Source: Nitrososphaerota archaeon
GTDB taxonomy: Archaea > Thermoproteota > Nitrososphaeria_A > Caldarchaeales > JAVZCJ01
Length of the DNA stretch: 24,000 bases
Assembly: GCA_038874475.1 (NCBI GenBank)
Contig: JAVZCJ010000004.1
Location: 1 to 24,000 of the forward strand
Reading direction: 5' to 3'
How positions within the stretch are numbered: position 1 is the first letter of the stretch; each line of letters opens with the position of its first letter. Of this stretch, positions 5,527-21,571 are shown one piece after another. Below the pieces are notes generated by a model, which made no database searches, was not told the DNA's origin, and saw only the letters and a list, made by a program, of their open reading frames with translations. Made by a program: the position numbers and the translations under genes.

Positions 5527-6384
5527 TTATTTCTTCTTTACTATTAAAAATGGAAGACTCAACGCCAGTAATATTGCTACCAATAAAGTTAGGAAATATG
5601 ATGCCCAATTTCCTTCTTGTGGCACTATTGGTTCTTTAGGCATAGCAATAGAAATTGTGTAAGGTATTATTTCTGTTTTTATTTCTATTCTTGGCGTAGT
5701 CATGGTTGTTGTTCCTGTTATTGTTTCGGTAATCTTTTCTTCTTCAATTTTTGGAATTGTTATCGTTGAATATTCGTATTCTGTAATATATCGTGGATAT
5801 TTCAAAGCTACTGTTCTATATTTCGTTAAATATTTTGTTATTGTTGTAGGATTTTCAATCGTATGAATTATAGTTTTAGTTCCAGATACAATATCTGTTG
5901 AATATTCTGTTAATGTAGTAACTCCTGTTATTGTTTCAGTAGAAGTTGAAGTCTCAGTATTTGTTAGAACTTTAATTGTAGTTGTTAATTCTATTTCGGT
6001 TATTGTGGTAGAGATTCTTTCGGTTTTTATTTCTTCTTGAGTGGTTGTAGTAGTAATAGTTTGAATTTCTGTTGTGGTTGTTGCTATTGTTATTGTTGAA
6101 TTTGCAGTAATGGTTGGGGTGATTGTTGCTATTTCAGTCGTAATTTCGATTATAGTTGTTGTAGGTGTTGCCGTTGTAGTTTCAGTAATAGTAGGAGGTT
6201 TAAAAACAATAACAGTTTCATGCCAAGGTGGTTCTATTGTTGTCTCAAAAGTTATAGTTGTTGTAGGTTTTGATGGTGGAGCATTTACTCCTACAATAAA
6301 ATTTGAAAGTAGAGTATGACTGATTAATACTGAAATTAATATTATAATTAATGTATTTATTGCAGTTTTCCTATTTTTATTCAT
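5527..6384 (-). CDS. Thr/Ile/Glu-rich secreted, C-terminally membrane-anchored surface protein (probable glycoprotein)
   Basis: It has an N-terminal signal/TM segment (TAINTLIIILISVLISHTLL...VNA-PP), a long low-complexity T/I/E body with recurring ETITG(T/V)TT motifs, and a C-terminal TM plus basic tail (WASYFLTLLVAILLALSLPFLIVKKK). I prefer the ATG at 6384 (MNKNRK...) because AGGTGA lies about 10 nt upstream. The track start is 6447. Confidence 0.6.
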   Translation of the reverse strand: MNKNRKTAINTLIIILISVLISHTLLSNFIVGVNAPPSKPTTTITFETTIEPPWHETVIVFKPPTITETTTATPTTTIIEITTEIATITPTITANSTITIATTTTEIQTITTTTTQEEIKTERISTTITEIELTTTIKVLTNTETSTSTETITGVTTLTEYSTDIVSGTKTIIHTIENPTTITKYLTKYRTVALKYPRYITEYEYSTITIPKIEEEKITETITGTTTMTTPRIEIKTEIIPYTISIAMPKEPIVPQEGNWASYFLTLLVAILLALSLPFLIVKKK

Positions 6385-7056
6385 TTTTCTTTTTTCACCT
6401 CTAAACTTCCCCATGCTATTCAAACATGAGTTTAAAATTTTCCTCAAAAAGTACCTTGCTTTTTTATTGTTACAAAAAGGTACTTTTTTTATAAAATTGC
6501 GGCTAGGTTACACCTCTAATATCACTTCATTAATTGTTAAATCATACCATTTGAACCCATATATATACTTTTGTGTTTTGTTGGTGATTTGTTGATGACA
6601 CACATGTACATTATAGAAGTGATTTGGGAAAACTATAGAAATCTTATTAAAAGATGATATTATTTCTCGAATGTATTTTAAAAGTATATCCTAAAATATG
6701 AAAATCTTCTTTATGATACATTAAATAAAAATTTATTTTTTATATTTCATTTTTTTAGCAATTTTTAATGAAGAAAAATATTAAAGCAACATCGGGGACT
6801 TTTTTCTTTTAATTTATTTTTCAATTTCCTTGATTATGAATAATATTTTTAAAGAATTTGTTAATAATATTATTGGTATTCATTTCTATTTTAGTATTTA
6901 CAACACTAAATTGCGCTAAAAATCCTTTTTTCCTAGTTTTTTATACTTTTTTCATAATGTCAACTTTTTTGTATTTAAAAGCTTTAATTTCTTTGGTTAT
7001 TTTGCTTAATTTTAGTAAAAATACTCTTAATTGAATTTTTTTATTAAAAAATATTG

Positions 7057-7071
7057 AAAAATATATATTTT
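7057..7071 (+). promoter_or_regulatory. Candidate archaeal TATA box/BRE for the tRNA-His gene
   Basis: AAAAATATATATTTT is centred about 30 nt upstream of the tRNA 5' end at 7094 and is preceded by a purine-rich stretch. AT-rich background makes chance TATA-like strings common. Confidence 0.35.
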
Positions 7072-7093
7072 CCCAAAAATAAATAAGCAATGA

Positions 7094-7222
7094 GGCCTAG
7101 GTGAGGTAGAAAAGATATATATTACCGATTCTGGTAGCCTGAGGGCCTGTGGAGCCCTTCGCTGGGGTTCAAAAATTGTGGGGGATATGTCCCTCACAAT
7201 TGAACATATCCCCACCTAGGCC
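7094..7222 (+). tRNA. tRNA-His (anticodon GUG) with encoded G-1 and two apparent non-canonical insertions/introns, one in the D-loop and one in the T-loop
   Basis: Hand-folded. G-1 (7094) pairs with C73 (7222). The 7-bp acceptor stem is 7095-7101/7215-7221, all Watson-Crick. U8 and G9 are present. D stem AGGT/GCCT is 7104-7107/7137-7140. Anticodon stem AGGGC/GCCCT is 7142-7146/7154-7158 with loop CUGUGGA. T stem TGGGG/CCCCA is 7163-7167/7210-7214. The D-loop region is 29 nt where about 9-11 is expected. The T-loop region is 42 nt where 7 is expected: TTCAAA + 35 nt + T. This is a GC-rich island in AT-rich DNA. Confidence 0.75.
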
Positions 7223-7235
7223 CTTAATTAAGAGG

Positions 7236-7243
7236 CTCTTTTT
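7236..7243 (+). terminator. Oligo-T tract downstream of tRNA-His
   Basis: CTCTTTTT lies 14 nt after the discriminator base. Archaeal transcription commonly terminates at oligo-T tracts. Confidence 0.3.
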
Positions 7244-7397
7244 AAAAAAATTTACATATGAAACAATATTTTTTCTTTTATAAAATTAAGGAATAAACCA
7301 TACCAAAAATATCCTATACTATTCTTTAAGAAAAAAGTTTTAAGTAAAACATTTCTTACAAATTGTCATTCTTTTTTTTAAAAAAAGAACCTTTAAG

Positions 7398-7472
7398 CGG
7401 GCCCGGCGGGACTTGAACCCGCGACTTGCGGCTCCGCAGGCCGCTGCCCTATCCATTCTAGGCCACGGGCCC
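7398..7472 (-). tRNA. tRNA-Arg (anticodon GCG), intron-less, 75 nt, no encoded CCA
   Basis: The reverse complement folds cleanly: GGGCCCG UG GCCU AGAAUGGAUA GGGC A GCGGC CUGCGGA GCCGC AAGUC GCGGG UUCAAGU CCCGC CGGGCCC G. Confidence 0.93.
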
Positions 7473-9356
7473 TCACATTTCTTCTATAATTGGCAATCCA
7501 AGTAAATATAAACAATTATTTAATGTTTGCTTAAAAGCAGCCACTATTGCTAATCTATAATTTGTTTCTTTTTCATTAGAAGATATCACTTGACATTTTT
7601 CATAAAAATCATTGAAATATAATGCTAATTGATGTGTATAATTTACTAATTTTTTTATGAAAAGCGTTTTAGCTACTTCTTCTACAATTAATGGAAATAA
7701 AGCAATTTGTCTTATAACATTTCTCTCATACTCGTTTGGCTCTCTAAAAACTTCCACATTTTTATTAAACATTCCTGCTTTTTCAATTATTCTACATGCT
7801 CTTGCAAAAGTATATTGCAAATATGGTCCAGTATTCCCTTCAATTCTCATAGCTTTCTCGCTATCAAATACAATTATTTTATCAGTATCGCTTTTTATTA
7901 ATTCGTACCTTAAAGATGCTATTGCTAAAGCTTCTGAAGTTTTATCTATTTTCTCTATACTCCATTCAGGATGCCTTTTCTTAGTTTCTAAAATAAATTT
8001 TTCTTTTAGCATATTTAATATTTCTTCTACTTTTATGTATATCCCTTTCCTTCCTTCCATATGAATAATTTTTGTTTTTATATCTTTTATTCCAATTTTT
8101 TCAGCATCTTTTGAACTTAAAGAAACTACTTCATATGAGAAATGTATGTATTTTTCAGGATCTATTCCTAAAAGTGATAAAACATATTTTATTATTTCTT
8201 GTGGTCTAGATTGTCTAACATCTATTACAGATATTGCTTTATCACATCTACCAAATTTTTCTTCCATTTTCCCATTAAAATCTGTTATTAATAAAGGTGT
8301 ACCATCTGGATTTTTTGTAAATAAGCTATATTTAAAATCATCGCTTAATAAACCTAGCTTCCAAGCTGCATAAGCAATATCTTTTGCAATATATGTTATT
8401 GTCAAATCACTTCTTAAAAGAACTTCATCTTCTTCTTTAGAAAGAATTGGATGTTTTGATAAATCTATTAACCAACAACCTGCTTTATTCCCTCTTTCTG
8501 AAGGATATATTATTCCCGCCTCTTTTAATTTATTGAACATTTTATTCCATAAACCAAAAACGATTACATCTAATTCTCTATTTATTACATCATATCTTGC
8601 TCCTAATCTCCAACATGTTTTCAATTGATCTTTTAAAACTTTTTCGGCTATTTCTCTATTCAATTTAAATATTTTTGAATTAACATCTTCTATTTCTTTA
8701 AGAATGGTCTTCTTCTTTTTTTCAAGCTCCGAATTTTTTGAAATTAAATTGTTTACTTCAACGTATATTTTATCTCCACAATATTCATCAAATCTAATAC
8801 CTTTAGGTGGCTCCATAGGATATTTAAGCTCTAAAAAGCCTAGTAAAATATCGGCCATTTGACTTCCACTATCGTCTACATAATTTGCAACAATTACTTT
8901 ATATCCTGAGAAATTCAAAATTCTATAAATTGTATCTCCTAAACAAACATTTCTTGCATGACCTATATGCAATGCCTTATTAGGATTAACACTTGTATGT
9001 TCAAGAAAAATTCTTTTGTTTTCACCAATATTTGTTTTTCCATAATCATTTTTAAGTTTTAAAATATTTTTTATAGTAGCTTCAGTATATTTAATCCAAT
9101 CAGCATAAAAATTAATGTATCCAGGAGGTTTAACATCGAAACTTTTTAATAAACCATCTTTTTTAAGAATTATTTTTGAAGAAATTTCTTTAGCATATTC
9201 AATAGGGTTTAAACCTAATTTTTTTGCATCTTCAAAACATGAAATACATGATATTTCTCCAAATTCTATTTTTTTAGGAATTTCTAATATAGGCTTAGAT
9301 AATCCTGCATTTTTAAGAATTTCTTCAGCTTCTTCAAATAAGTATTTTACAGTCAT
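7473..9356 (-). CDS. argS: Arginyl-tRNA synthetase
   Basis: 627 aa. It has the class I HIGH motif (NPNKALHIGHARN), a DALR-type anticodon-binding C-terminal domain, and the conserved C-terminal Met (..PIIEEM). Confidence 0.92.
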   Translation of the reverse strand: MTVKYLFEEAEEILKNAGLSKPILEIPKKIEFGEISCISCFEDAKKLGLNPIEYAKEISSKIILKKDGLLKSFDVKPPGYINFYADWIKYTEATIKNILKLKNDYGKTNIGENKRIFLEHTSVNPNKALHIGHARNVCLGDTIYRILNFSGYKVIVANYVDDSGSQMADILLGFLELKYPMEPPKGIRFDEYCGDKIYVEVNNLISKNSELEKKKKTILKEIEDVNSKIFKLNREIAEKVLKDQLKTCWRLGARYDVINRELDVIVFGLWNKMFNKLKEAGIIYPSERGNKAGCWLIDLSKHPILSKEEDEVLLRSDLTITYIAKDIAYAAWKLGLLSDDFKYSLFTKNPDGTPLLITDFNGKMEEKFGRCDKAISVIDVRQSRPQEIIKYVLSLLGIDPEKYIHFSYEVVSLSSKDAEKIGIKDIKTKIIHMEGRKGIYIKVEEILNMLKEKFILETKKRHPEWSIEKIDKTSEALAIASLRYELIKSDTDKIIVFDSEKAMRIEGNTGPYLQYTFARACRIIEKAGMFNKNVEVFREPNEYERNVIRQIALFPLIVEEVAKTLFIKKLVNYTHQLALYFNDFYEKCQVISSNEKETNYRLAIVAAFKQTLNNCLYLLGLPIIEEM

Positions 9357-9486: not shown

Positions 9487-9599
9487 TGGGGCCGGCGAGA
9501 TTTGAACTCGCGACTTTGGGCAATTGTTTCGGGAAAAATATTAAATTTTTTTCTCCCGGTCCCTAGCCGGGTATCATAACCATGCTAGACCACGGCCCC
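9487..9599 (-). tRNA. Intron-containing tRNA with a Pro-like acceptor stem, apparent anticodon AGG, and an insertion of about 38 nt in the variable-loop region
   Basis: Reverse complement: GGGGCCG UG GUCU AGCAUGGUUA UGAU A CCCGG CUAGGGA CCGGG AG[38-nt A/U-rich insert]GUC GCGAG UUCAAAU CUCGC CGGCCCC A. The acceptor, T arm and anticodon arm are all Watson-Crick. Isotype and anticodon are uncertain (see findings). Confidence 0.75.
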
Positions 9600-11303: not shown

Positions 11304-12027
11304 ATGAATTACAAAAGTAAAGAAAATAAGAGACATAGTAGGTTATTTTATATTTGCATAGTAACATTCCTAACTATAGGATTTATATTCTTTTCTATAT
11401 TTATGAGTACTTTTAGCAAAAATAGGGGCAGCATTTCTATTCCAATATCTTTTCCAATTGTAGCAATAATAATCTTTTATGAGGGCATTATTAGAAAAAG
11501 AGAGTTAAGTGAATTAGGTATTAAAAAAGAAAATTTTTGGAGAAACATTGGAATTGGTATTCTATTAGCATTTTTCGGATTTTTTTATAATGTTTGCTGT
11601 AGTGAAACTTACTATTCCTGATTTGATTGAAGAAATCGGTGGAAGAACTGAGACGATAAGTAATTTCTTTAGATTTAATTTTTCATTTCCTTTAAATTAC
11701 ATTCTTCAAACAATTTATGCTTTTACCTTACTCGCTCCTGCGGAAGAACTTCTATTCAGAGGATTTATTCAAGGTAGGTTACAGAAGTGGATGAATCCTT
11801 ATTTAGCAATCAATATCCAATCTATTCTATATGGGCTAACCCATGGATTTCCTTTATATATGATTGGTTTACCTATTATTCATTGTATAGCTTATGGATT
11901 AATAGGCTTTTTTGGAGGTGTACTCCTTGGTATTGCTTTTTATAAAACAAACAATAATATTGTAGCTTCATGGTTTGCTCATGTAATCTCAGACTCACCT
12001 TTAGCATTATTATTCTTTGAATTTTAG
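11304..12027 (+). pseudogene. CPBP-family intramembrane glutamic endopeptidase (CAAX protease/Abi) interrupted by a +1 frameshift in a T7 run
   Basis: ORF 11304..11621 encodes the N-terminal TM region and ORF 11590..12027 the catalytic part (AEELLFRG, LYGLTHG, FAHVISD). They overlap in different frames. Removing one T from the run at 11580-11586 joins them into one continuous TM helix (..LLAFFGFFIMFAVVKL..). Confidence 0.7.
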
Positions 12028-17949: not shown

Positions 17950-19077
17950 TCATTTATACCTTCCATATTTATCTCTTACTTCAGAAATTTTAAGTAAATT
18001 TTCTTCTGGAGTATTTGGACTCAATCCACATCCAGGGCCAAGCGCAAAAGATATGCAATTTTTTCCTAATTCTATTGAATTTTTTACCATTAATTCAACA
18101 TCTTTGGGCGTACCAGAGAAAAGTGGTCCAAGATGATCAATTCCAGCACAAAGTGGAATTTTATCACCAAATTTTTCAACAGCTTTTTCTAATGGATAAG
18201 TTGATCCTGGAGCATAAAATTGCAATTCATTTATAAGTTTAGGTTTTCCAAATTTTTCATATATAAAATCTAAATCTGGATCCCAACTACAAACATGAGT
18301 TGTAATAGGAACATCTTTACCTATTCTTGATCTAACTTTATTTAAATATTCTAAATCTAATGCAGCTAACCATTCTCTTAAATCTGGGCTTAAAATAGAT
18401 TTATCATATCCACTAAATCCCATACAAAAATTTGTAAAATTGATTGCTTCTACCATTTTATATGCTACATCAACTGTCCATTCCATTAAAGGCCCTCTAA
18501 CTATTCTTGTTAAAGTAGGAAGTAAATCTGGAAATATCATAACATCTCTCATTACTTCGGTCATTCCAATCGTTAAAGCTAAAGTTGCAGCAGGTCCAAG
18601 TATTCCTTGTCTTAAAAGGACTTTATTCCCAATTTTTTCTGCAACAATCTTCCATGCTTCAAATATTGCTTCAGCTCTTTTACATTTTCTAGGATCAAAT
18701 TCTTCTATGTTTTTTTCAATCCTTTCTACTTTTTCAATAAATCTATCATAAATACTGTGATCTGGTTTATAACGCCATGGTTGAATCTTTGCTTGTACAA
18801 CATGATCTAAAATTTCAACTTCAGCACCCAATATTTCATACATAACCCATTGATCTGTATTCACACCTGTAATATCAACTCTAAATTTTTCAGCTACAGC
18901 TATATGCCCTCTTGCTATGGCTTTTCCATCATAAACATATTCTCTTAAACTTGGCACACCAGAATATTTCCAAGCTAAATAAACAGATTCTAACCATATT
19001 GGCATTTTATCTGGTTTTTCTCCATTCAGATAAGTTAAAGCTCTTTCGAGACCTGTAATTTCAACCATATTTTTCAC
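17950..19077 (-). CDS. URO-D superfamily methyltransferase, MtaA/MtbA/MtsA-like (methylcobamide-dependent, Zn-thiol type)
   Basis: 375 aa. It has the N-terminal LNGEKPDKMPIW pattern, the H-x-C motif (THVCS), and a distal Cys in LGPGCGLSPNTPEENL, consistent with the MT2 Zn ligand set. The start is either GTG 19077 or ATG 19068, and AAGGAGGT lies just upstream inside the corrinoid gene. Confidence 0.7.
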   Translation of the reverse strand: MKNMVEITGLERALTYLNGEKPDKMPIWLESVYLAWKYSGVPSLREYVYDGKAIARGHIAVAEKFRVDITGVNTDQWVMYEILGAEVEILDHVVQAKIQPWRYKPDHSIYDRFIEKVERIEKNIEEFDPRKCKRAEAIFEAWKIVAEKIGNKVLLRQGILGPAATLALTIGMTEVMRDVMIFPDLLPTLTRIVRGPLMEWTVDVAYKMVEAINFTNFCMGFSGYDKSILSPDLREWLAALDLEYLNKVRSRIGKDVPITTHVCSWDPDLDFIYEKFGKPKLINELQFYAPGSTYPLEKAVEKFGDKIPLCAGIDHLGPLFSGTPKDVELMVKNSIELGKNCISFALGPGCGLSPNTPEENLLKISEVRDKYGRYK

Positions 19078-19693
19078 GTACCTCCTTAACTAATTTATTT
19101 GCAATTTCTAAAGCAGTTTTAGGATCATGAGCCCAACCATCTAATTCAAATTTTTTAGCTACAAATGGATTACCTTGTACACCTCCTATTATAACCTTAA
19201 CTTTATCTCTTAAATTATTCTCTTTTAAGAATTTAATTATTTTCTCTATTTCAAATATTGCATTTGTTAAAAATACTGAAAGCCCAATTAAGTGAGGCTC
19301 GAATTCTTTTATGCCTTTTATAAAATCTTCCGCCATTAAATTTTCACCCAAATCTTTAACTTCAAAACCATCTGCTATATACAATACTTTTATAATATCT
19401 TTTCCTATGTAATGCATGGAGCCTAACGTCCCTATTAAAATTCTACCTTTATCCATTTTTTCAATTTTATCTTTTAGAATTTCATAACCCATGTAAAAAG
19501 ATGCCATTATTGCAGAAAGTTGTGGGAGTGCAAATTCTTTACCATATTTATCACATGCATCAAAAATTGCTTTTCTTAAGCTATTAAGAATTTCATTAGG
19601 ATCCGCCCCGATTGAAAGAAGATGTTTAATCTCTTTTTCTACTTCAAATGGTTTAAATTCCATGGCTAGTTTATATATCTTATTTTCCATCAT
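19061..19693 (-). CDS. Corrinoid (B12-binding) protein, MtaC/MtbC/MtsB-like, with an atypical S-x-H-x-x-G motif
   Basis: 210 aa. It has an N-terminal helical cap plus a Rossmann B12-binding domain: GSMHYIGKD (19403-19420), LSVFLT and IIGGV. It overlaps the downstream methyltransferase start. Confidence 0.75.
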   Translation of the reverse strand: MMENKIYKLAMEFKPFEVEKEIKHLLSIGADPNEILNSLRKAIFDACDKYGKEFALPQLSAIMASFYMGYEILKDKIEKMDKGRILIGTLGSMHYIGKDIIKVLYIADGFEVKDLGENLMAEDFIKGIKEFEPHLIGLSVFLTNAIFEIEKIIKFLKENNLRDKVKVIIGGVQGNPFVAKKFELDGWAHDPKTALEIANKLVKEVREKYG

Positions 19694-19812
19694 TATTACC
19701 TAAAAATTCTATTATCTAATAAGGATATTTAAACATTTTTATTATTTAATAAATTAAAACAGGAATTATAAATATATAAGTTAATTAAGGTAATAAATTT
19801 TTTTAAAAGTGT

Positions 19813-20916
19813 ATGGTTATGAATGGCCAAAAAGAATGGGAGAAAAATAATGAAAGATTCTTAGCAACTTTAAATCTCGAAGAAAGTGATAGAGTTCCAA
19901 TTATGGATATAGTAAATAATGAAAAAATTAGAAAAATTGTTGAAACAAAAGATCCTCTTGAAACAAATGCAAGAGCATACAGATATTTAGGTATAGACAT
20001 AACTAGAGATTATTGGTGGCTTACAGATTTCATGTGGTTTAAAAATAAGTTTTTTGAATGGATGGATGTTTTAGGAATTGAAAAAGAAGGATGGGCTATT
20101 AAAACAAAAGCAGGAACTACATGGATTGATAAAAGACCCTTTAAAAATTTAGAAGAACTTAGTAATAAACTTCCTCCAGAACCAGATGAAAGTAAAATAG
20201 CAGAATGGTTTATTCCATATCATAAAAAAACTATTGAAGGATATAAGAAGCATGGCATAGTATTTGTAGGAAATTTTGAAGGCCCATTAACTGAAGCTTA
20301 TATGTTTACAGGTTATGATTTATTCTTTCAAGCCATGTTTATGGCGAAGAGTATAGTAAATAAACTTTTAGATATTTTTGAAAAATGGATAATAATTAGA
20401 CTTAAGCTTTGGGTAGAAGAAAATATGGGCGATGTAGTATTCTTAGGAGAAGATATAGCTTTTGATAAAGGGTTAATGTTCTCTCCTAAATGGCTTAATG
20501 AAAATTGGTTTCCAAGAATTAAACGTATAAGAGACTTTCTTTTTAGTAAAAATATAAAGATGATATTTCATAGTGATGGAAACCTTTATCCAATTTTAGA
20601 TACATTGGTTTTTGACCTAAAAATAGATGCATTGCACCCAATAGATCCAACAGCAGGAATGAAAATAGATGAAGTTAAAGAAAAATATGGAAATCATATT
20701 GCCTTAATTGGTTATATAGATTGTAGTCATCTCTTACCATTTGGAACAACAAAAGAAATAGTTGAAAAAGTAAAAGAAACATTATCTATAGCTGCTCCAG
20801 GCAGTGGTTATATTTTAGGGTCAAGTAGTGAAATACATGATGCTATATCTATAGAGAATGCAAAAGCTTTATATGAAACAGGAAGAAAATATGGTAAATA
20901 TCCAATTAAAAGGTGA
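19813..20916 (+). CDS. URO-D superfamily methyltransferase-like protein lacking the Cys-based Zn site
   Basis: 367 aa. It has the N-terminal FLATLNLEESDRVPIMD pattern and a C-terminal IFHSDGNLYPILD...IDALHPIDP...GYILGSSSEIHD fold pattern of PF01208-type proteins. The whole protein contains a single Cys. Confidence 0.65.
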   Translation: MVMNGQKEWEKNNERFLATLNLEESDRVPIMDIVNNEKIRKIVETKDPLETNARAYRYLGIDITRDYWWLTDFMWFKNKFFEWMDVLGIEKEGWAIKTKAGTTWIDKRPFKNLEELSNKLPPEPDESKIAEWFIPYHKKTIEGYKKHGIVFVGNFEGPLTEAYMFTGYDLFFQAMFMAKSIVNKLLDIFEKWIIIRLKLWVEENMGDVVFLGEDIAFDKGLMFSPKWLNENWFPRIKRIRDFLFSKNIKMIFHSDGNLYPILDTLVFDLKIDALHPIDPTAGMKIDEVKEKYGNHIALIGYIDCSHLLPFGTTKEIVEKVKETLSIAAPGSGYILGSSSEIHDAISIENAKALYETGRKYGKYPIKR

Positions 20917-20923
20917 GCGCATA

Positions 20924-21571
20924 GTGCAAAATGATATATTAAAAGAAATACAAGAAGCTTTATTATCAATGGACATAGAAAAAACTTTACTATTAACTAG
21001 AAGAGCTTTAGAGCAAGGATTGAATCCTATAAAAATAATAGAAGATGGGCTTTCAAATGGTATAAGAAAATTAGGAAATATGTATGAAAATGGAGAAGCT
21101 TTTTTGCCAGAACTTGTTATGGGTGCTGAAATTATGAAAAGAGCTGTAGAAATCGTTAAACCTGAATTGGAAAAAAGAAAGGAAGAAAGAAAAAAGCTTG
21201 GAAAAGTTATGCTAGCTACAGTTGAAGGAGATGTACATGATATAGGAAAAAATTTGGTGTCTCTTATGCTTTGGATTAATGGATTTGAAATAATAGATTT
21301 GGGTGTGGATGTCCCAGTAAGAGAAATAATTAAAAAGATTAAAGAATTAAAACCTGATGTTTTAGGTTTATCGGCACTTCTTACAACTACATTATTAGAA
21401 CAGAAAAGAGTTTTAGAAGAATTAGAAAAAGCTGGGTTAAGAAAAAATGTAAAAGTAATTGTAGGAGGAGCACCTGTTACTGAAGAATGGGCTAAAAAAA
21501 TAGGAGCAGATAGTTATGCTCCAGATGCTGTTAAAGCTGTAGATAAAGTAAAAGAGCTTTTAAAATCATAA
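20924..21571 (+). CDS. Corrinoid (B12-binding) protein, canonical MtaC/MtbC/MtmC type
   Basis: It has canonical GDVHDIGKN (from 21230), LSALLTT and VGGAP motifs. I prefer the GTG at 20924 as start, because AGGTGA at 20911-20916 overlaps the upstream stop. The track start at 20858 would overlap the upstream gene by 59 nt. Confidence 0.85.
   Translation: MQNDILKEIQEALLSMDIEKTLLLTRRALEQGLNPIKIIEDGLSNGIRKLGNMYENGEAFLPELVMGAEIMKRAVEIVKPELEKRKEERKKLGKVMLATVEGDVHDIGKNLVSLMLWINGFEIIDLGVDVPVREIIKKIKELKPDVLGLSALLTTTLLEQKRVLEELEKAGLRKNVKVIVGGAPVTEEWAKKIGADSYAPDAVKAVDKVKELLKS

Follow-up and report, generated by a model that had tools for sequence, protein, structure and literature searches.

Does the GC-rich island at positions 7094-7222 of the window, i.e., of the whole 24,000-nucleotide stretch of DNA that was analyzed, encode a working tRNA-His whose gene is interrupted twice, or is its resemblance to such a gene that of a relic or of chance? 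The window as a whole has a GC content of 28%, and only three of its intergenic stretches reach at least 55% GC over 40 nt: Rfam identifies two of them as tRNA genes, and the remaining one is the island considered here. The unspliced locus draws no call from ARAGORN (default settings or -i) or from Rfam cmscan, even at E<=10. With both inserts removed, ARAGORN calls tRNA-His(gtg) with a regular cloverleaf. This call bears out the first-pass annotation, which had folded the island into a complete tRNA-His(GUG) with a G-1:C73 pair and the anticodon loop CUGUGGA. Its further claim that default annotation would miss the gene is borne out so far as ARAGORN, with and without -i, and Rfam cmscan are concerned; the archaeal mode of tRNAscan-SE 2.0 was designed for such intron-bearing genes, using BHB models trained on Crenarchaeota/Euryarchaeota and Thaumarchaeota and iterating for nested introns (PMC8450103). 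Taken together, the evidence set out below indicates that the locus is very probably a functional, doubly spliced tRNA-His(GUG) gene, and that its host is an uncultured hot-spring archaeon of thermophile type and low GC content with affinities to the Aigarchaeota/Caldarchaeales.

On the plus strand, the gene runs from G-1 to the discriminator C73 (7094..7222), with no encoded CCA, and is divided into three exons. The 5' exon (7094..7110, or ending at 7109 in an alternative junction model) supplies G-1, the 5' strand of the acceptor stem, U8 G9, the 5' strand of the D-stem, A14, G15 and A16, and is followed by a D-loop intron of 18 nt (7111..7128; alternatively 20 nt, 7110-7129). The middle exon (7129..7172) carries the remaining D-loop with G18 G19, the 3' strand of the D-stem, the anticodon arm with GUG at 7149-7151, the variable loop, the 5' strand of the T-stem and U54-A58 of the T-loop. 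Beyond a 35-nt T-loop intron (7173..7207), the 3' exon (7208..7222) completes the molecule with A59, U60, the 3' strands of the T-stem (CCCCA) and of the acceptor stem (CCUAGGC), and C73. As read directly from the sequence, G7094 (G-1) pairs with C7222 (C73), and the acceptor stem has 7 bp (7095-7101/7215-7221), leading into U8 G9. The D-stem is AGGU/GCCU (7104-7107/7137-7140), and the anticodon arm AGGGC-CUGUGGA-GCCCU (7142-7158) places the 7-nt loop CUGUGGA (7147-7153) on a 5-bp stem. The 4-nt variable loop is UCGC and the T-stem UGGGG/CCCCA (7163-7167/7210-7214). Unspliced, the locus has about 29 nt at the D-loop position and 42 nt in place of the 7-nt T-loop. After excision, U8, A14, G15, G18G19, A21, G46, C48 and U54U55C56A57A58 are all present, and the D-loop has a length of 9 nt under one junction model and 11 nt under the other.

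Two flanking elements could serve in the transcription of the gene. An A/T box, AAAAATATATATTTT (7057..7071, plus strand), lies 23-37 nt upstream of G-1 as a candidate archaeal BRE/TATA promoter element, and a T5 run (7239..7243, plus strand), 17 nt past C73, is a candidate oligo-T terminator. The box is invariant in the three species variants described below, the adjoining upstream sequence being 77-82% identical, and a similar box, TTTAAATAA, is found 22-30 nt upstream of the neighboring tRNA-Pro gene. The T-run recurs about 17-20 nt downstream in all three variants. Certain other gene architectures can be set aside at this point. The three exons are colinear within 129 nt, which rules out a split or permuted tRNA gene. 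Self-splicing introns of group I and group II measure hundreds of nucleotides and contain a ribozyme core; such introns are ruled out by the sizes of the inserts (18-20 nt and 35 nt) and by the lack of Rfam intron matches in them.

The cloverleaf recovered by excision is not readily obtained from comparable random sequence. In a double-excision grid, 1309 of 2112 variants were called tRNA by ARAGORN, as against 0 of 126,720 when the same grid was applied to 60 dinucleotide-preserving shuffles; additionally, the unspliced RNA has a fold z-score of -4.9. Relatives of the locus provide a further line of evidence. The window matches the MAG contigs JAVZHF010000005.1 and JAVZDN010000019.1, and exact-pattern scans with the anticodon-arm region recovered one species-representative genome (L004) and three metagenome contigs. 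All copies found in these scans of genome and metagenome collections contain the introns, none being intron-free. They fall into three distinct variants, namely that of the window, shared with L001 and L002, that of L004, shared with L005 and L006, and that of L007. The neighboring coding DNA of the window is 87-90% identical to that of the relatives in two other species.

The two junctions were evaluated against the archaeal bulge-helix-bulge (BHB) rule, under which each strand comprises a helix, a 4-nt strand of the central helix H, a 3-nt bulge and a further helix, with cleavage after the second base of the bulge. This rule is well established, and it is backed here by internal validation on two introns. 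Applied to the tRNA-Pro intron of L004, it restores a canonical AGGUC variable loop, and it is therefore validated within this lineage. The first-pass annotation had made its reading depend on BHB motifs being foldable at the junctions, and they are: a textbook strict hBHBh' at the T-loop, and at the D-loop a weaker motif that can be drawn as a relaxed hBH.

The T-loop insert has the strict 3-4-3 hBHBh' structure of an archaeal BHB tRNA intron. Helix h consists of 3 bp (7164-7166/7209-7211: G7164-C7211, G7165-C7210 and G7166.U7209), H of GUUC 7167-7170 paired with GAAC 7202-7205 (4/4 pairs), and the bulges are AAA 7171-7173 and AUA 7206-7208. Helix h' extends over 11-12 bp (the 11 bp being 7174-7184/7191-7201) and is closed by the 6-nt loop AUAUGU. 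Cuts at 7172|7173 and 7207|7208 take out 35 nt and restore the loop UUCAAAU, which places the intron at position 58/59. The first-pass annotation had arrived at the same insert length and product, and its other option, 59/60, would yield the identical RNA. Among the six strict BHB motifs passing a "strong" filter over the whole window on both strands, this is the strongest, with by far the longest h'. Four more such motifs (6236/6285 on the plus strand; 17850/17766, 17517/17496 and 9802/9757 on the minus strand) all lie inside ORF coordinates and are presumed to be chance matches. The unconstrained centroid fold contains the H and h' helices with the 5' 3-nt bulge, shifted by one register within the A-run, but lacks helix h and the 3' bulge of the motif. 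The motif is kept in L004 (32-nt intron) and in L007 (35 nt) with no pair broken, the changes comprising one compensatory replacement of G-C by A-U and several one-sided wobble changes. Specifically, in H the pair G7167-C7205 becomes G.U in L004, and in h' a G.U becomes A-U, a U-A becomes U.G and, in L007, the terminal G-C becomes A-U by compensatory change. A 9-bp hairpin noted earlier within the insert, TTGTGGGGG/CCCTCACAA (7176-7184/7191-7199), is indeed present. The alternative 10-bp pairing proposed alongside it, GGGGATATGT/ACATATCCCC (7181-7190/7204-7213), does exist in the window, yet the L004 homolog cannot form it intact, as judged from the sequences read by hand; for this reason it was dropped and is probably incidental.

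The D-loop insert presents a less regular picture. In the best strict register, H is formed by GGUA 7105-7108 and UACC 7123-7126 (4/4 pairs), such that the GGTA/TACC pairing pointed out by the first-pass annotation is present and serves as the central BHB helix. It is accompanied by a 2-bp h (A7104-U7130 and G7103-C7131) and the 3' bulge GAU 7127-7129, the 5' cleavage site lying in an A/U loop with essentially no h'; hence, the motif is a relaxed hBH (BHL-like) one. Strict cuts at 7110|7111 and 7128|7129 remove 18 nt and leave an 11-nt D-loop, AGAUUCUGGUA, with an unusually long spacing of 5 nt between G15 and G18. With a one-base slip the intron becomes 7110-7129, i.e., 20 nt, with 3/4 pairs in H, 1 bp in h and 2 bp in h', leaving a D-loop of the typical 9 nt, AGUCUGGUA. 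Both lengths fall within the 18-20 nt estimated earlier. The hBH motif (H 4/4, h 2 bp, no h') is conserved in the three species, the junction being ambiguous by one base on each side. An excision of 16 nt (7112-7127; H 4/4, h 3 bp) was rejected, as it would leave a 13-nt D-loop, and a scan of D-loop registers found none in which a strict BHB goes together with a D-loop of standard size. The AT-rich window contains about 1,400 motifs of the quality of the D-loop junction, which is not statistically significant on its own. Further, a competing hairpin, UACCG/UGGUA, in which the 3' end of the intron pairs with G18-A21, is favored over the BHB conformer by about 5.4 kcal/mol. Because the motif is both common and energetically costly, the placement of this junction rests on tRNA logic and conservation rather than on the motif itself.

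These properties speak for a different account, according to which the T-loop insert is a genuine BHB intron, whereas the D-loop insert is not processed via a BHB and is instead retained as an expanded D-loop or removed by some other route. The D-loop motif is weak, lacks significance by itself and is thermodynamically disfavored, and the strict rule yields an odd D-loop of 11 nt. Retention, however, would call for a tRNA that works with a D-loop of about 29 nt, and none of that kind is known. Further, conservation and G/C content coincide in a single element of the D-loop intron, the 3'-terminal U(A/G)CCGA, and this element corresponds exactly to the H3 strand plus the bulge; its one substitution, A7124-to-G, turns U7107-A7124 into a U.G wobble and thus still pairs with U13. 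The window's own tRNA-Pro gene needs an equally relaxed H of 3 bp for its splicing. Finally, relaxed hBH motifs, including those of D-loop introns, are documented substrates of the (alpha-beta)2 and epsilon2 endonucleases (PMC3239211, PMC3241643). On these grounds we consider retention or non-BHB removal of the D-loop insert very unlikely. A somewhat broader formulation, in which this insert might be no conventional BHB substrate, being either cut as a very relaxed hBH with an exceptional 11-nt D-loop or else removed or tolerated otherwise, is also unlikely. Were it true, then together with the twice-interrupted tRNA-Pro(AGG) and its A34, it would point to unusually permissive tRNA processing and decoding in this low-GC Aigarchaeota-like lineage.

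The comparison of the three variants also bears on whether the locus is a gene under selection at all. The three exons are identical to the window at 76/76 bases in both L004 and L007 (5' exon 17/17, middle exon 44/44, 3' exon 15/15), and the predicted mature tRNA is the same for all three variants. By comparison, identity to the window is 56% (L004) and 55% (L007) in the D-loop intron, 71% and 77% in the T-loop intron, and 45-82% in the 60-nt flanks. The D-loop intron measures 18, 18 and 20 nt and the T-loop intron 35, 32 and 35 nt in the window, L004 and L007, respectively. This is the pattern of BHB introns, with invariant exons and intron interiors that drift in sequence and length with indels, and all substitutions in the BHB helices keep the pair. 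The three species thus amount to a natural experiment in which the exons stay fixed and the intron interiors drift, whereas wobble and compensatory changes maintain the pairs of the BHB, a result that supports the view of the BHB as the only constrained part of these introns.

Such a pattern is difficult to reconcile with a decaying tRNA-His pseudogene that has been broken by two insertions, with a working tRNA-His gene elsewhere. The silence of the standard finders (ARAGORN and Rfam) at the locus speaks for such a relic. Against it, the exons remain unchanged across three species whose introns and flanks have diverged; taking 80% as the neutral identity, which is an assumed round figure, the exon identity has a probability below 1e-7 of arising by chance. 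Moreover, both inserts preserve their BHB geometry, the promoter-like box and the T-run are conserved, and the exons behave like two undoubted adjacent tRNA genes, whose Rfam scores do not differ between L001 and L004. The pseudogene account is accordingly highly improbable. Least of all can the island be entertained as an antisense protein-coding region or a chance GC-rich hairpin, since the 62-aa antisense ORF (7027..7215), which exists and had already been called spurious, has its frame broken in L007 by a 2-nt indel in the D-loop intron, such that its downstream third is read in another frame, and since the shuffle controls (fold z-score and excision grid) exclude the hairpin.

For the locus as a functional, doubly spliced tRNA-His gene, the following pathway may be envisaged. 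Transcription would yield a precursor consisting of a leader, about 129 nt of gene sequence and a trailer, an archaeal tRNA-splicing endonuclease would remove both introns, and an RNA ligase would join the exons. At the T-loop, cleavage of the strict BHB behind base two of both 3-nt bulges would give UUCAAAU. At the D-loop, the 5' strand of the D-stem together with A14 (GGUA) would pair with the 3' end of the intron (UACC) to form the relaxed hBH; given this pairing, only the 3' bulge of the motif is well formed. Strict geometry would predict an 18-nt intron and an 11-nt D-loop, and the one-base slip 20 nt and 9 nt. A substrate of this kind would need a broad-specificity enzyme of the (alpha-beta)2 type. 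Genes for a splicing endonuclease and an RtcB-type ligase are absent from the window and the fetched loci; from its lineage, the host presumably possesses a broad-specificity splicing endonuclease, (alpha-beta)2 or epsilon2, and a ligase of this type (PMC3082918, PMC4090602).

That lineage can be gauged from the arginyl-tRNA synthetase (ArgRS) encoded next to the locus, which is 92% and 85% identical to those of relatives in the genus. Beyond the genus, the nearest ArgRS proteins are about 55% identical and carry the names Nitrososphaerota, Aigarchaeota, Candidatus Caldarchaeum, HR01 or Calditenuaceae, and L004, the closest genome match, is designated "uncultured Nitrososphaeria archaeon". On account of these nearest homologs, the host is Aigarchaeota/Caldarchaeales-like and not a member of the Thermoproteales, the group to which the first-pass annotation had likened it. 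At the ArgRS loci of more distant relatives (L008-L011), gene order is not conserved and neither a tRNA-His nor an intron-less ortholog was found.

For this archaeal group, tRNA genes with two interruptions are nothing new, and the present case leaves the understanding of archaeal tRNA splicing unchanged. Multi-intron tRNA genes with introns in the D-, V- and T-arms have been described from Crenarchaeota, Thaumarchaeota and Aigarchaeota (PMC3082918, PMC3293823, PMC4033280). In Caldiarchaeum subterraneum, for example, 13 tRNAs contain introns, three of them more than one (in the D-, V- and T-arms), and the endonuclease is a heterotetramer (PMC3082918, PMC3293823). The present host belongs to the same phylogenetic neighborhood (ArgRS 47-55% identical) and shares with Caldiarchaeum and the Aigarchaeota the non-canonical D-, V- and T-arm introns with BHB motifs at their junctions, the heterotetrameric endonuclease being reported for the Aigarchaeota lineage. 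However, tRNA-His is not among the three multi-intron genes of C. subterraneum, the host here represents another, much more AT-rich lineage (28% GC), and the introns are unrelated as far as can be discerned. Multiple-intron tRNAs are likewise found in Thermoproteales such as Pyrobaculum, Thermofilum and Caldivirga (Sugahara 2008, cited in PMC4033280; PMC8450103). These genes have up to three short BHB introns each and resemble the locus in the non-canonical positions, the mixture of strict and relaxed motifs, and the failure of default finders to detect them, but they belong to another archaeal class, and there is no evidence here of the large-scale intron transposition ascribed to that order.

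Enzymological precedents exist in the literature. The (alpha-beta)2 and epsilon2 enzymes accept relaxed hBH and HBh' motifs as well as bulges of 1-4 nt, and enzymes of broad specificity also cut T-loop introns located at 53/54 and 59/60 (PMC3239211). As in ARMAN, the T-loop intron is in a strict hBHBh', and a short intron with a relaxed hBH occurs at a second junction; unlike in ARMAN, which uses an epsilon2 three-unit enzyme, the T-loop intron here is at 58/59 and is combined with a D-loop intron. In addition, the enzyme of A. pernix is able to cut BHB introns of the D-loop in vitro (PMC3241643), a case that resembles ours in the location of the intron within the D-loop and in which removal by the (alpha-beta)2 endonuclease alone was demonstrated experimentally. 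There, however, the BHB is canonical, whereas the D-loop motif of the tRNA-His gene lacks h' and is only an hBH.

The practical consequence of the locus lies in annotation. Without this gene, a genome bin of the lineage would seem to lack tRNA-His, and because two of the three tRNA genes of the window are interrupted non-canonically, tRNA counts and completeness estimates of MAGs will come out too low unless intron-aware tools are used.

The second interrupted gene is a tRNA-Pro with the anticodon AGG (window 9487-9599, minus strand; L004 188-279, plus strand). Its A34 is very unusual in Archaea, with a precedent in ARMAN-4/5 (PMC3239211). The insert lies in the variable region at 45/46 and in L004 comprises 17 nt in an HBh' motif (H5 = CGGG, positions 40-43; H3 = CCCG). 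In the window it comprises 38 nt, in that a 25-nt homologous intron is joined by 13 further nt, ACAAUUGCCCAAA, which have a 3-bp H of their own, a layout suggestive of two introns, either adjacent or nested. After splicing, both species yield the same product, which ARAGORN calls tRNA-Pro(agg). The third gene, tRNA-Arg(GCG) (7397-7475, minus strand), abuts with its start at 7472 the last base, 7473, of the ArgRS stop codon; hence, the genes of the synthetase and its cognate tRNA are immediate same-strand neighbors, a pairing also seen in L004-L006.

Other genes of the window present peculiarities of their own. An Rce1-like/CPBP protease gene (11304-12027, plus strand) is split into ORFs of 105 aa and 145 aa with a 32-nt overlap; in the assemblies L001-L003 the 145-aa gene is annotated in this same position, and L002 and L003 have an upstream ORF annotated as well. 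An mRNA intron at a strong BHB-like motif in this overlap (11580/11642) was rejected, as joining at the predicted sites would create a TGA stop. The reading frame becomes continuous once one T is dropped from the T7 run at 11580-11586, and the split is most likely a real or artefactual +1 frameshift rather than an mRNA intron. A 306-aa ORF (5527-6447, minus strand) is very rich in Thr, Ile and Glu, is hydrophobic near the N-terminus and in a C-terminal tail, and does not match any Pfam family. Conservation between the species is lowest here, with only about 210 nt aligning at 72% identity and an apparent absence of the ORF from this place in L007; its product may be a fast-evolving surface protein. 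Finally, the region 17950-21571 contains two genes of the URO-D family (MtaA-like) and two for B12-binding corrinoid proteins, beside an MFS transporter gene, a set which suggests corrinoid-dependent methyl transfer in this Aigarchaeota-like lineage.
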